Below, piece by piece: positions 39,290 to 42,992 of a DNA stretch of 64,000 bases. The stretch comes from Escherichia coli (GTDB lineage Bacteria; Pseudomonadota; Gammaproteobacteria; Enterobacterales; Enterobacteriaceae), in the NCBI RefSeq assembly GCF_041886205.1, contig NZ_CP169029.1; one strand, given 5' to 3'. Below the pieces are notes generated by a model, which was not told where the DNA came from, did no database searches, and saw only the letters and a program-made list of their open reading frames with translations. The first letter of the stretch is position 1. Each line of letters starts with the position of its first letter. A program made the translations under genes and the position numbers.

Positions 39290-39643
39290 GACGGTTCTCC
39301 TCGCTCTCATTGTCATAGTGCGGCAGGCGATTCTCTTCACGCTCCTGTGAGACAGCAGTTTGTAGGGTAAATGCCCAGTACCGCAACGGGCAGAATAGCA
39401 GGATTTTGACGAGGTGTTAATCTGTTTACAAAAAAGCAACATAAAAAAGTGGCTGAATCGTTAAGGATGGTCTAGAGATTGTTTCCCTCCGTAAAAACTT
39501 CGTTAATTCGCATGGTGATAATCACCTTTCTCAACGAATCCCAAGATTAGTCAAAATTTAAACTACCGCCTCTTTATACTCGGATTCACAGCACCTGCGG
39601 GTGGCAGTTCGCCGACCATTGCGATTTCCTTGAGATCCGAATT

Positions 39644-41497
39644 ATGAAAATGACTTTGCCGTTTAAACCCCATGTGCTGGCGCTAATTTGCAGTGCCGGG
39701 CTTTGTGCCGCCTCTACCGGGCTATATATAAAAAGCCGCACAGTGGAAGCGCCTGTGGAACCGCAATCGACACAACTGGCTGTGTCTGACGCTGCCGCGG
39801 TTACGTTTCCTGCAACGGTTTCCGCACCTCCCGTAACACCCGCCGTCGTCAAATCCGCATTCAGCACTGCACAAATAGATCAATGGGTCGCGCCCGTCGC
39901 GCTGTATCCCGACGCCCTACTTTCGCAGGTGCTGATGGCATCAACCTATCCGACAAACGTTGCTCAAGCAGTGCAATGGTCGCACGATAATCCACTTAAA
40001 CAAGGCGATGCTGCTATTCAGGCGGTATCTGACCAGCCGTGGGACGCCAGCGTTAAATCACTGGTGGCCTTTCCACAATTGATGGCATTGATGGGCGAAA
40101 ACCCGCAATGGGTGCAAAACCTGGGCGATGCTTTTCTGGCCCAGCCGCAGGACGTGATGGACTCGGTACAGCGATTGCGGCAACTGGCGCAACAAACCGG
40201 CTCGCTGAAGTCATCAACCGAACAGAAAGTTATTACCACAACGAAGAAAGCTGTACCGGTAAAACAGACAGTCACGGCACCCGTCATACCATCCAATACA
40301 GTTTTAACTGCCAACCCCGTCATTACAGAGCCGGCAACAACCGTCATTTCCATTGAGCCCGCCAATCCTGATGTGGTCTATATTCCCAACTACAACCCAA
40401 CCGTGGTTTACGGGAACTGGGCCAATACTGCGTATCCGCCGGTTTATCTGCCACCACCAGCCGGAGAACCGTTTGTTGACAGCTTTGTACGCGGATTCGG
40501 CTATAGCATGGGCGTTGCTACCACGTACGCACTATTCAGCAGCATCGACTGGGACGACGACGATCATGACCATCATCATCATGACGATGATGATTATCAT
40601 CACCACGATGGCGGTCATCGTGACGGTAATGGCTGGCAACACAACGGCGACAACATCAATATCGACGTCAACAATTTCAACCGTATCACCGGTGAGCATC
40701 TTACTGATAAGAATATGGCATGGCGGCACAATCCAAACTACCGTAATGGTGTGCCCTATCATGATCAGGATATGGCAAAGCGGTTTCATCAAACCGATGT
40801 CAACGGCGGAATGAGCGCCACGCAATTACCTGCCCCAACGCGCGACAGCCAGCGTCAGGCGGCAGCAAATCAGTTTCAGCAACGAACACACGCCGCACCA
40901 GTCATTACACGAGATACCCAACGTCAGGCAGCGGCACAGCGGTTTAATGAAGCTGAACACTATGGGAGCTATGACGACTTCCACGACTTCAGCCGTCGCC
41001 AACCACTGACCCAGCAACAAAAGGACGCCGCTCGTCAGCGTTATCAGTCCGCCTCGCCTGAGCAGCGCCAGGCAGTTCGCGAGAGAATGCAGACTAACCC
41101 GCAGATCCAGCAGCGAAGAGAGGCAGCGCGTGAGCGCATTCAGTCCGCCTCGCCTGAGCAGCGCCAGGCGGTTCGCGAGAAAATGCAGACTAACCCGCAG
41201 AACCAGCAGCGAAGAGACGCAGCGCGTGAGCGTATTCAGTCCGCATCACCAGAGCAGCGCCAGGTGTTTAAGGAAAAAGTACAGCAGCGCCCACTGAATC
41301 AACAGCAACGTGATAACGCCCGCCAGCGTGTTCAATCGGCATCACCTGAACAACGTCAGGTTTTTCGGGAAAAAGTTCAGGAGAGCCGCCCACAACGTCT
41401 AAACGACAGTAACCATACTGTCAGGCTGAATAACGAGCAACGGTCAGCAGTACGCGAACGTCTCTCTGAGCGCGGAGCAAGGCGACTGGAAAGGTAA
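39644..41497 (+). CDS. yacH: Secreted DUF3300-like protein of unknown function with His/Asp-rich tract and C-terminal 32-aa tandem repeats
   Basis: 617-aa ORF with signal peptide; low-complexity DWDDDDHDHHHHDDDDYHHHDGGH; four SASPEQRQ-containing repeats. Confidence 0.85.
   Translation: MKMTLPFKPHVLALICSAGLCAASTGLYIKSRTVEAPVEPQSTQLAVSDAAAVTFPATVSAPPVTPAVVKSAFSTAQIDQWVAPVALYPDALLSQVLMASTYPTNVAQAVQWSHDNPLKQGDAAIQAVSDQPWDASVKSLVAFPQLMALMGENPQWVQNLGDAFLAQPQDVMDSVQRLRQLAQQTGSLKSSTEQKVITTTKKAVPVKQTVTAPVIPSNTVLTANPVITEPATTVISIEPANPDVVYIPNYNPTVVYGNWANTAYPPVYLPPPAGEPFVDSFVRGFGYSMGVATTYALFSSIDWDDDDHDHHHHDDDDYHHHDGGHRDGNGWQHNGDNINIDVNNFNRITGEHLTDKNMAWRHNPNYRNGVPYHDQDMAKRFHQTDVNGGMSATQLPAPTRDSQRQAAANQFQQRTHAAPVITRDTQRQAAAQRFNEAEHYGSYDDFHDFSRRQPLTQQQKDAARQRYQSASPEQRQAVRERMQTNPQIQQRREAARERIQSASPEQRQAVREKMQTNPQNQQRRDAARERIQSASPEQRQVFKEKVQQRPLNQQQRDNARQRVQSASPEQRQVFREKVQESRPQRLNDSNHTVRLNNEQRSAVRERLSERGARRLER
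41030..41413 (+). repeat. Four tandem about 96-bp in-frame repeats inside yacH (first two nearly identical)
   Basis: Direct DNA repeats read from sequence: ...cagtccgcctcgcctgagcagcgccagg(c/g)ggttcgcgaga(g/a)aatgcagactaacccgcag... recurring at about 41031, 41127, 41223, 41319. Confidence 0.85.
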
Positions 41498-41508
41498 ATT
41501 ACAGACGT

Positions 41509-41560
41509 AAAAAAAGCGGCGTGGTTAGCCGCTTTTTTAATTGCCGGATGTTCCGGCAAA
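41509..41560. terminator. Bidirectional terminator region between convergent yacH and lpd (agcggc/gccgct flanked by A- and T-runs, plus second hairpin tgccgg/ccggca)
   Basis: Two hairpins read from sequence; AAAAAAA-stem-loop-TTTTTT architecture. Confidence 0.8.
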
Positions 41561-41567
41561 CGAAAAA

Positions 41568-42992
41568 TTACTTCTTCTTCGCTTTCGGGTTCGGCAGGTC
41601 GGTAATGCTACCTTCGAACACTTCTGCCGCCAGGCCCACAGACTCGTGCAGAGTCGGGTGCGCGTGGATGGTCAGTGCGATGTCTTCAGCATCACAACCC
41701 ATTTCGATTGCCAGACCGATTTCACCCAGCAGCTCACCGCCGTTAGTACCGACAATCGCACCACCGATCACACGGTGAGATTCTTTGTCGAAAATCAGCT
41801 TGGTCATACCGTCTGCGCAGTCGGAAGCGATAGCACGGCCAGAAGCAGCCCACGGGAAGGTGGCGGTCTCAAAGCTGATGCCTTTCTCTTTCGCTTCTTT
41901 CTCAGTCAGACCTACCCATGCAACTTCTGGTTCGGTATAGGCGATGGACGGGATAACTTTCGGATCGAAGTAATGTTTTTTACCGGCGATAACTTCAGCG
42001 GCAACGTGACCTTCGTGAACACCTTTATGTGCCAGCATTGGCTGACCGACGATATCGCCGATAGCAAAGATGTGCGGTACGTTGGTACGCAGTTGTTTGT
42101 CAACGCGGATGAAACCACGGTCGTCAACTTCCACGCCAGCTTTGCCTGCGTCGAGGTTTTTACCGTTCGGCACACGACCAATCGCTACCAGCACGGCGTC
42201 GTAACGCTGCGGTTCAGCGGGTGCTTTTTTGCCTTCCATCGTCACATAAATGCCGTCTTCTTTCGCTTCAACGGCGGTAACTTTGGTTTCCAGCATCAGG
42301 TTGAATTTCTTGCTGATACGCTTGGTGAAGACTTTAACGATGTCTTTGTCAGCTGCCGGGATAACCTGGTCGAACATTTCAACCACGTCAATCTGTGAAC
42401 CCAGCGCGTGGTAAACGGTGCCCATTTCCAGACCGATGATACCGCCACCCATTACCAGCAGGCGTTCTGGTACTTCTTTCAGTTCCAGCGCGTCAGTGGA
42501 GTCCCAGATACGCGGATCTTCATGCGGAATAAACGGCAGTTGGATCGGGCGAGAACCCGCTGCAATGATCGCGTTGTCGAAGTTGATCACGGTTTTACCG
42601 TTCTCACCTTCAACTTCCAGGGTGTTAGCCCCGGTGAATTTACCCAGACCGTTGACCACTTTGACTTTGCGGCCTTTCGCCATACCAGCCAGACCACCGG
42701 TCAGCTGATTGATCACTTTCTCTTTCCAGGTACGAATCTTGTCGATATCGGTTTTCGGTTCGCCGAAGACGATACCATGTTCAGCCAGCGCTTTGGCTTC
42801 TTCGATAACTTTTGCTACGTGCAGCAGTGCTTTAGAAGGGATACAGCCGACGTTCAGGCAAACACCGCCAAGGGTGTTGTAACGTTCTACGATTACGGTT
42901 TCCAGACCTAAATCAGCGCAACGGAAGGCAGCGGAGTAACCTGCGGGGCCTGCCCCAAGTACCACGACCTGAGTTTTGATTTCAGTACTCAT
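41568..42992 (-). CDS. lpd: Dihydrolipoyl dehydrogenase (E3 of PDH/OGDH/GCV)
   Basis: ORF 41568..43025; start refined to MSTEIKTQVVVLGAGPAGY (cat 42990-42992); redox CLNVGC; 474 aa. Confidence 0.96.
   Translation of the reverse strand: MSTEIKTQVVVLGAGPAGYSAAFRCADLGLETVIVERYNTLGGVCLNVGCIPSKALLHVAKVIEEAKALAEHGIVFGEPKTDIDKIRTWKEKVINQLTGGLAGMAKGRKVKVVNGLGKFTGANTLEVEGENGKTVINFDNAIIAAGSRPIQLPFIPHEDPRIWDSTDALELKEVPERLLVMGGGIIGLEMGTVYHALGSQIDVVEMFDQVIPAADKDIVKVFTKRISKKFNLMLETKVTAVEAKEDGIYVTMEGKKAPAEPQRYDAVLVAIGRVPNGKNLDAGKAGVEVDDRGFIRVDKQLRTNVPHIFAIGDIVGQPMLAHKGVHEGHVAAEVIAGKKHYFDPKVIPSIAYTEPEVAWVGLTEKEAKEKGISFETATFPWAASGRAIASDCADGMTKLIFDKESHRVIGGAIVGTNGGELLGEIGLAIEMGCDAEDIALTIHAHPTLHESVGLAAEVFEGSITDLPNPKAKKK

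Follow-up and report, generated by a model that had tools for sequence, protein, structure and literature searches.

How does a gene found in essentially every Escherichia coli genome come to carry two repetitive coding segments, and do these segments differ between strains? The question is raised by yacH (b0117 in K-12), which is located on the plus strand of a 64,000-nucleotide stretch of E. coli DNA (NCBI RefSeq assembly GCF_041886205.1, contig NZ_CP169029.1), here called the window. An initial annotation, made from the sequence, had identified the 617-amino acid open reading frame (ORF) at 39644-41497 as yacH. Both the ORF list (ATG start, TAA stop at 41495-41497) and genome annotation bear this out, in which 5,425 of the 5,426 complete genomes of E. 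coli label the gene yacH or "DUF3300 domain-containing protein" and 5,369 of the 5,425 have a match covering at least 80% of it. We found that a His/Asp-rich tract within the protein and an array of 96-nucleotide (nt) units toward its C-terminus are both polymorphic in natural E. coli, and that the changes are recurrent and in frame. We hold this account of the anatomy and polymorphism of yacH with high confidence. The gene itself is already annotated, and its repeat polymorphism is a new example of a phenomenon known from other genes; no description of it was found in our literature search, where results on yacH and repeats were dominated by unrelated papers on multilocus typing by variable-number tandem repeats (MLVA).

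The array consists of four units positioned head-to-tail at 41003-41098, 41099-41194, 41195-41290, and 41291-41386, all in frame, with identities to unit 1 of 100, 83, 69, and 66%, respectively. Tandem Repeats Finder reported a period of 96 with 2.3 copies, 93% matches, and a score of 386 at 41044-41264. The initial annotation had placed four repeats of about 96 bp at approximately 41030-41413 and described the first two copies as nearly identical; this is the same array in a register 27 nt off, and the near identity of copies 1 and 2 is true in that shifted register. It had also proposed the repeats as a substrate for copy-number change, and alleles with 2, 3, 4, and 5 units do occur. Translations gave four units in the window, K-12 type, O157 type, and 537-20 alleles, three in EC2, ZH063 (ST131 type), CFT073, and EH01-18-02, two in 210205630 and GmF052, and five in P0004. 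In complete genomes, yacH spans 1854, 1758, or 1662 nt, in addition to other lengths that mix unit and tract changes. Among 60 genomes taken at even steps through a ranking of the 5,425, 32 had the 4-unit span, 14 had the exact 3-unit span, 1 had two units, and 13 produced split alignments, which were 3-unit alleles in all representatives fetched, giving shares of roughly 53% with four units, 45% with three, and 2% with two.

Unit-by-unit comparison identified chimeric units joining 1/2 in EC2, 1/3 in 210205630, and 3/4 in CFT073. Because these breakpoints, which lie inside shared stretches, differ between lineages, the contractions were independent. One allele background (...QQTAPDIT... / ...RRQER type) was found with 2, 4, and 5 units. 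The array thus has the properties of an intragenic variable-number tandem repeat, namely in-frame head-to-tail units and a copy number that changes from strain to strain via independent events. A 17-amino acid duplication was present inside units 3/4, and in a 662-amino acid YacH (P0001-P0003) a 45-amino acid (135-nt) tandem duplication (AAPVITRDTQRQAAAQRFNEAEHYGSYDDFHDFSRRQPLTQQQKD) was located just upstream of the array, corresponding to approximately 40900-41030 of the window. The latter occurred on 19, 3, and 5 contigs, and shows that the tail also grows outside the recognized units. In AST85, a genome labeled E. coli (NZ_AP043644.1, positions 601-2460 of the locus), yacH has only approximately 78% DNA and 74% protein identity, a different His/Asp tract, and its own array of units of about 33 amino acids (...QRQAFREKVQNQQRPLSQQQRDSARQRIQSA...), which indicates a separate expansion of the array in an Escherichia lineage that has diverged. 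Identity of the array with ms11, a 96-bp MLVA locus in E. coli/Shigella typing, was considered and dropped, as neither ms11 primer (PMC8215070) was present in the 64-kb window at up to 3 mismatches.

The other variable segment is the His/Asp tract, in which 19 of 22 residues are His or Asp (9 His, 10 Asp), compared to 6.7% His plus Asp in the rest of the protein. Across 2,000 whole-protein shuffles, windows of 22 residues never held more than 10 His/Asp. The tract is encoded by nearly all GAY and CAY codons and carries a net charge of -10 in addition to its nine His residues. A low-complexity His/Asp segment had initially been noted at about 40547-40630, and its exact limits are 40553-40618. 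In 125 E. coli YacH sequences the tract ranged from 9 to 36 residues, and 11 different tracts were found on one otherwise identical protein backbone; it is far more changeable than its flanks. Variants with 21 residues were found on 326, 44, and 36 contigs, those with 20 residues on 32, 25, and 25, and one with 14 residues on 9. DNA alignments identified a 6-nt insertion (CATGAC) in ZH063 and a 24-nt insertion (CATGACCATCATCATCATGACGAT) that duplicates adjoining sequence in CFT073, and we read both as tandem duplications. Deletions of 6 and 39 nt were also present, which by our reading lie between short direct repeats, as was a 1-bp frameshift in strain L26. The +6 allele, seen in ZH063 and Ecol_AZ162, accounts for approximately 10% of complete genomes and is taken to be typical of ST131-type strains; the -39 allele accounts for approximately 3%, and the others are rare. 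The strains of the extraintestinal pathogenic E. coli type that were examined (CFT073 and ZH063) combine three units with a longer tract, and a longer tract is likewise present in the allele of Nissle 1917.

A more complex change was noticed by eye in L3_E36_ETEC (NZ_LR882997.1), where yacH is annotated as frameshifted. At approximately 2730-2900 of this locus, corresponding to approximately 40607-40772 of the window, the sequence following the tract reads as the reverse complement of a downstream segment ending TATCATGATCAGG. This could be an inversion of about 170 bp bounded by the GAT/CAT-rich tract, either as a real rearrangement or as an assembly artefact.

Comparison of E. coli alleles indicated that the regions of the protein are under different degrees of constraint. 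The dN/dS ratio was 0.00-0.04 in the helical core (residues 75-190), 0.05-0.15 in residues 236-303, and 0.06-0.11 in the units (residues 454-581), relative to 0.55-0.79 in the N-terminal linker (residues 31-74). Given this low ratio, the units are translated and constrained at the amino acid level, unlike a neutral spacer, and their amino acid sequence is under purifying selection.

Both segments are embedded in what is, judging from its sequence, an exported cell-envelope protein of the large DUF3300 family (Table 1). Pfam DUF3300 (PF11737) matched residues 75-333 with an E value of 2.7e-78 and a score of 263 over model positions 2-227 of 227, and no other Pfam domain was found in YacH at a cutoff of E ≤ 10. 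In NCBIfam, searches with YacH, with DUF2950, and with a DUF3300 protein from outside E. coli found no family. When 1.84 billion cluster representatives were searched exhaustively with HMMER, 9,581 family proteins were retrieved at E ≤ 1e-3, of which 6,602 reached E ≤ 1e-10, and most full-length matches carry clear canonical cleavable signal peptides. In YacH, strong hydrophobicity is confined to residues 9-29 (Kyte-Doolittle 1.91 over 19 residues; no other segment exceeds 1.6), and AlphaFold2 predicts a helix at residues 9-22. The hydrophobic stretch is 19-20 residues long with Lys and Arg on its flanks and has no clean AXA cleavage site, and could act either as a Sec signal peptide or as a signal anchor that stays uncleaved. 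Of the initial description of YacH as a secreted protein with a signal peptide, export therefore stands, given this single N-terminal segment and the cleavable signals of its relatives, whereas secretion goes beyond this evidence and, given the lack of a clean AXA site, the segment may stay uncleaved. Reading of the sequence also found no lipobox of the form [LVI][ASTVI][GAS]C at the end of this segment, as Cys16 follows A-L-I and Cys21 follows A-G-L.

Table 1 Coordinates of yacH, its regions, and its 3′ flank, numbered from the first nucleotide of the window
Feature	Coordinates	Strand	Basis
yacH coding sequence, 617 amino acids plus TAA	39644..41497	+	ORF list; yacH annotation in E. coli genomes
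N-terminal hydrophobic export segment (predicted), residues 9-29, HVLALICSAGLCAASTGLYIK	39668..39730	+	Hydropathy, AlphaFold2, family signal peptides
Pro/Ala/Val/Thr-rich linker, residues 31-74	39734..39865	+	pLDDT 51-56; dN/dS 0.55-0.79
DUF3300 match, residues 75-333	39866..40642	+	Pfam E 2.7e-78
All-helical core subdomain, residues 75-190	39866..40213	+	pLDDT 95-98; dN/dS 0.00-0.04
Thr/Val/Pro-rich inter-subdomain linker, residues 191-235	40214..40348	+	Low AlphaFold2 confidence; diverged allele block
Conserved strand-/Pro-rich core part, residues 236-303, ...IEPANPDVVYIPNYNPTVVYG...	40349..40552	+	pLDDT and near-invariant columns
His/Asp tract DDDDHDHHHHDDDDYHHHDGGH, residues 304-325	40553..40618	+	Composition, loop position, pLDDT, length variants
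NINIDVNNFN strand, then W-x-H-N-P-x-x-R-x-G-V-P-Y motif, residues 336-375	40649..40768	+	Core alignment; pLDDT
Two degenerate TRDxQRQAAAxxF helix copies, residues 397-437, start of Gln/Arg-rich tail	40832..40954	+	Sequence reading; AlphaFold2 helices 397-414 and 423-437
Four in-frame 96-nt (32-amino acid) tandem units, residues 454-581	41003..41386	+	Unit alignment, Tandem Repeats Finder, AlphaFold2
Arg-rich C-terminal tail, residues 582-617	41387..41494	+	Composition; pLDDT <50
Likely bidirectional intrinsic terminator common to yacH and convergent lpdA	41510..41538	.	Sequence reading

AlphaFold2 models were built from a 121-sequence alignment and from a 30-sequence core alignment, and predicted the core with a pLDDT (predicted local distance difference test score) above 90. 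The helical subdomain is composed of two similar helical segments (ALYPDxLL... and AFPQ.L...) and, in the alignments, contains most of the near-invariant columns of the family. In the strand-/Pro-rich part, pLDDT was approximately 93-95 at residues 231-270 and 69-85 at residues 271-303; its near-invariant columns are I237, P242, Y246, V247, P248, Y250, P252, Y256, G257, W259, P266, and W303, with the invariant Trp303 closing this part just before the His/Asp tract. Confidence was again high beyond the tract (84-94 at residues 341-380), in a segment at residues 341-385 with NINIDVNNFN and W-R-H-N-P-N-Y-R-N-G-V-P-Y, where Trp360 and His362 are invariant and Arg367 is nearly so in the 30-sequence core alignment. 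The inter-subdomain linker at residues 191-235 (40214-40348) was distinct in another respect. Its allele block is highly diverged in phylogroup-B2-type strains, with dS of 1.1-1.2 and dN of 0.18 relative to ZH063/CFT073, compared to dS of 0.03-0.37 in the flanks. In this sense yacH looks mosaic, with an old or imported allele block limited to the linker.

The tract itself is predicted by AlphaFold2 to be a disordered loop (pLDDT <50), a prediction that is silent on metal affinity either way. Its counterpart in the family is the loop between Trp303 and a V-N-I-N-V-N strand, which has a median length of 4 residues (e.g., GGGD, GRGD, or HHGD; 121 sequences) and contains at least one His in 61 of the 121 sequences and at least three in 13. 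Long His/Asp-rich inserts were found at the exact loop position in Scandinavium (P0121, 58% identity), a metagenome sequence (P0124, 48%), and Rahnella victoriana (P0126, 43%), and expanded inserts that are His-rich and less acidic were found there in P0129, P0173, and P0249. Since the loop usually has 4 residues and long inserts are present only in some lineages, the tract is a loop expansion rather than a family feature. Judged from the alignments, these Enterobacterales relatives retain the His/Asp composition, and loops rich in His reappear in other lineages. The initial annotation had named an invariant repeat number and an unconserved His/Asp tract as findings that would refute it; instead, the repeat number varies, and the insert is kept at the same position in the three Enterobacterales relatives from Scandinavium, Rahnella, and the metagenome. 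Family members all have a low-complexity C-terminal half rich in Arg, Gln, Asn, and Gly, and several have their own unrelated internal repeats (GSGDARERAREVASNR four times and PQQAAQRPER four times). Orthologs in the AlphaFold Database range from 428 amino acids in Cronobacter to 618 in E. fergusonii.

AlphaFold2 models the C-terminal half of YacH as a series of short helices. Each 32-amino acid unit of the YacH tail is predicted to form two helices of about 16 residues, PQxQQRRDAARERIQSA and SPEQRQAVREKMQTN (AlphaFold2, pLDDT 62-87). An 11-residue motif, [EQ][QR]R.[AVN].[RK][EQ][RK][IVML][QS], recurs eight times with a spacing of approximately 16 residues, with looser copies at residues 401, 426, and 459 and a further copy, EQRSAVRERLS, at residues 598-608. 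From this recurrence, the 96-nt unit is itself a duplicated helix of about 16 residues, and a single type of helix makes up the tail from residue 397 onward. Charge is polarized along the protein, the acidic tract being followed by units with a net charge of +12 and a pI of 11.5 and by a last 36 residues that contribute a charge of +5.

Taken together, these features would fit a scaffold that starts with a membrane anchor or Sec signal, continues with a flexible linker rich in Pro, Ala, Thr, and Val and with a globular, conserved core comprising a helical subdomain and a strand-/Pro-rich subdomain with a W-x-H-x-P-x-x-R-x-G-V-x-Y motif, and ends in a basic Arg/Gln-rich tail. The tract and the units would be lineage-specific embellishments of this scaffold produced by slippage. 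In this model, the tract is an expanded surface loop whose GAY/CAY codon microsatellite may gain or lose codons, or blocks of 6-39 nt, between short direct repeats. The units would form a four-copy 96-bp minisatellite encoding helix-turn-helix hairpins by which the basic tail is extended, and whole 32-amino acid units could be lost or added in frame when the repeats recombine unequally or slip. Replication slippage in the codon run, and unequal recombination or slippage in the units, are suggested by the breakpoints together with the precedent of tolA. By analogy with TolA domain II repeats, copy number would probably tune the length and positive charge of a functional tail. We favor this overall reading, that of slippage-generated tracts on a DUF3300 envelope protein scaffold, with moderate confidence.

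His-rich flexible loops and tails occur in metal-handling proteins, including ZnuA-type periplasmic zinc-binding proteins, SlyD, HypB, and Hpn. Considering its composition, the retention of this composition in relatives, and what is generally known of His-rich loops (that of ZnuA, for instance), the tract is probably either a low-affinity divalent-cation site or an acidic counterpart of the basic tail. An acidic His-rich loop beside the conserved core would most likely serve as a low-affinity binding site for divalent cations (Zn/Ni/Cu) or as an electrostatic site; the proposal of metal binding in particular, which the initial annotation had also drawn from the His/Asp cluster, is plausible but given somewhat less than even odds. 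The only echo in database searches came from a ZnuA chain, which residues 303-325 matched without significance (E 9.9). The tract at 40553-40618 also resembles a natural FLAG-plus-His tag, and a search of PDB sequences with YacH returned mainly tagged recombinant constructs (DYKDDDDK-HHHHHH), along with noise, which makes it a pitfall for homology searches. This resemblance suggests that native YacH might bind to immobilized metal affinity chromatography resins.

The initial annotation had described the function of YacH as uncharacterized, and this agrees with what we found: no NCBIfam family, no solved relative, and, in our literature search, no paper assigning a function, only notes on regulons and phenotypes. 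Expression of yacH increased 3.87-fold in one of two Cpx-activating conditions (cpxA24 or NlpE overexpression), while protamine lowers its mRNA, partly via CpxR, and the yacH deletion strain outlives wild type under protamine (PMC9600279). The same study cites cecropin A as reducing yacH transcription (PMC9600279), and a cathelicidin-derived peptide raises yacH mRNA (PMC6737244). Expression is also Rob-dependent, being lower in a rob mutant (PMC7537768), and the promoter is induced by ampicillin (PMC8865558). From this published regulation and phenotype only, we infer that YacH acts at the interface of envelope stress and cationic peptides, under Cpx and Rob control and with a protamine phenotype. 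An extension of this idea is that DUF3300 is a new-fold family in which susceptibility to cationic peptides and/or metal stress would be set by a tunable module composed of an acidic metal-binding loop and a polycationic helical-repeat tail. Length alleles, such as the 3-unit, longer-tract allele of CFT073 and ZH063, would then be maintained by selection in different host niches rather than by neutral drift; we regard this as improbable.

The most serious competitor to the favored reading is that tract and units are neutral low-complexity expansions in tolerant regions, made by slippage, with composition and length unselected and the protein either working or not mattering regardless. Tract lengths of 9-36 residues and 2-5 units in healthy natural isolates are consistent with this, as are the 4-residue loop that is normal in the family and the low-complexity tails of relatives with their differing lineage-specific repeats. 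The non-His/Asp residues of the tract (Tyr, Asn, and Gly) are single-nucleotide neighbors of His/Asp codons, and K-12 knockout strains can do without the gene, which is a pseudogene in several strains of S. Typhimurium (PMC3391293). However, the dN/dS of the units is as low as that of the structured parts and well below that of the true linker at residues 31-74. In addition, the His/Asp-rich composition of the loop is kept in relatives as distant as Scandinavium and Rahnella, the loop has also become long and His-rich in a few lineages that are unrelated, and one modal tract length of 22 residues dominates divergent phylogroups (approximately 80% of complete genomes). On balance, we consider the neutral explanation unlikely. 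Dispensability and the pseudogenes of many S. Typhimurium strains nevertheless weigh against slippage-generated tracts on a functional scaffold, and several other points do so as well. No solved structural relative of the core was found by structure comparison. The predominance of the modal tract, together with alleles that are stable inside clones such as the +6 allele of ST131-type strains, shows moderate instability that is not like that of a contingency locus. In clinical isolates (L002) the tract has only 9 residues, and since it can shrink to this length, and the family loop mostly has 4 residues, it is not essential to the fold. Finally, the genome census was based on evenly spaced samples of 40-60 rows out of 5,425 genomes.

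Two further explanations concern the units and the frame of the gene. One is that the units are diverged LTXXQ hairpins of the CpxP/Spy/ZraP type, making YacH a Cpx-regulated periplasmic chaperone or signaling modulator whose His-rich metal site would be like that of ZraP. In the units, the motif SASPEQRQAVREKMQ is similar to SLTEHQRQQMRDLMQ and LLTPEQQAVLNEKHQ of CpxP, a BLASTP alignment of the tail to CpxP has 30% identity over 130 residues (pairwise E 1e-4), and Smith-Waterman scores reach a z of approximately 5 against composition-preserving shuffles, compared to z <1 for six control proteins; the regulation of yacH by CpxR (PMC9600279) is also in agreement. But neither Pfam, at E ≤ 10, nor NCBIfam reports such a domain, and a search of all PDB sequences with a 16-unit profile fails to bring up CpxP, Spy, or ZraP, its top matches being unrelated (S/T)PEQ helix caps at E ~1. 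The hhalign probability is 4.6% over 20 columns, scores against Spy and ZraP are not significant, and a repeated query scores one short motif twice. S-P-E-Q-R stands at helix starts in each unit, and this is a common helix cap in many unrelated proteins. While the pairwise signal to CpxP is real, homology was downgraded to a local helix-cap motif in view of the Pfam, PDB profile, and hhalign results, and we consider descent from this family very unlikely. The other explanation is that yacH is a phase-variable contingency gene, with slippage frameshifts toggling its expression. In S. Typhimurium, an 8-bp deletion in the matching GAT/CAT run frameshifts yacH, which, compared with LT2, is therefore a pseudogene in 14028s, UK-1, SL1344, and D23580 (PMC3391293, PMC10048834), and among the E. 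coli genomes examined yacH is annotated as frameshifted in three, namely L003 (a laboratory mutant), L019 (a 1-bp tract deletion), and L3_E36_ETEC (L014). However, periods of 96 nt and codon triplets keep nearly all observed changes in frame, the gene has no homopolymer or 2-, 4-, or 5-nt tract that could toggle the frame, and the match over at least 80% of the gene in 5,369 of 5,425 genomes argues for an intact locus. Single frameshifts in long-read assemblies may also be sequencing errors, and phase variation is thus hardly credible here. The reading we retain is that of slippage-generated, in-frame variation on a DUF3300 scaffold.

In the window, yacH is located between acnB and lpdA, both on the minus strand, with lpdA downstream and convergent. 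The candidate terminator shared with lpdA at 41510-41538 reads, in order, an A-run, a GCGGC stem, a GTGGTTA loop, a GCCGC stem, and a T-run; a consensus terminator scan did not report this hairpin, and RNA-family and promoter/terminator scans of 39300-41700 gave nothing above chance.

A gene present in essentially every E. coli genome, from a family of thousands with no solved structure, structural relative, or assigned function as far as our searches reach, thus offers a natural allelic series of 9-36-residue tracts and 2-5 units that is ready for probing the role of YacH in the envelope and its links to Cpx, Rob, and protamine. The locus is also a potential typing marker, as well as a trap for short-read assembly and pseudogene calling.

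Several known systems share part of this architecture. In root-nodule bacteria, DUF3300 and DUF2950 proteins are co-localized, secreted, and induced, with the pairing universal there and the function not known (PMC4653623). YacH shares the Pfam family, core architecture, and export signal of this pair. Outside E. coli, a DUF2950 gene is the typical downstream neighbor of DUF3300, as it is in the L008 contig, the P0194 contig, and the Rahnella locus (L023), such that a relative with the His/Asp insert also has DUF2950 next to it. At the latter locus (L023, 6001-8486), the R. victoriana gene lies between nadR-like and zinc-type alcohol dehydrogenase genes, followed by DUF2950. The gene neighborhood of the metagenome relative P0124 matches this locus, and a related metagenome contig (L009, 2685-4457) shows these neighbors without DUF2950. 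In the non-enteric contig L008 (2407-7405), genes for an ABC ATPase and a MacB/FtsX-type permease, together with a weak match to DUF3299, lie immediately upstream of the DUF3300-DUF2950 pair. An association with this MacB-type transporter and DUF3299 was dropped, as it was not seen in the other four loci examined and may be coincidental. Unlike the DUF3300-DUF2950 pair of Proteobacteria, E. coli yacH stands alone between acnB and lpdA, a locus other than that of the Rahnella gene, with lpdA rather than DUF2950 next to it and no DUF2950 in the 64-kb window (best tblastn E 1.2), and adds a long N-terminal hydrophobic segment and the 32-amino acid array. No PDB relative of DUF2950 was found, and the association with it yields no function.

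Like ZnuA, SlyD, HypB, and Hpn, YacH has a disordered His/Asp-rich segment, here on an exported folded domain and with variable length among relatives; unlike the ZnuA type, it has no solute-binding-protein fold and no Pfam or structural relation to it. Likenesses to CpxP, Spy, and ZraP are the Cpx-linked regulation, the probable periplasmic location, and predicted hairpins in which an (S/T)-P-E-Q cap opens the second helix, and, for CpxP, a pairwise similarity of the tail that exceeds shuffled controls. In contrast to the single two-motif domain of these proteins, YacH has a tandem array on a DUF3300 core, and profile-level tests of the relationship failed.

The closest parallel is TolA. In-frame repeats in tolA vary from 8 to 16 units among 234 isolates and change at 6.9e-5 in a RecA-dependent manner, the changes altering stress tolerance, and in-frame repeats are present in approximately 30 genes of MG1655 (Zhou, Michiels and Aertsen 2012, PMC3477136). 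After tolA, yacH would be the second gene for an E. coli envelope protein in which in-frame repeat number is documented to be polymorphic. As in TolA domain II, the repeats of yacH lie in a helical, charged, extended region and are strain-variable in copy number, and those of TolA domain II change by recombination or slippage between units, as proposed here for yacH. Unlike tolA, the unit of yacH is 96 nt rather than 15 nt with only 2-5 copies, and the YacH tail is Arg/Gln-rich, strongly basic, and not part of a known trans-envelope machine.

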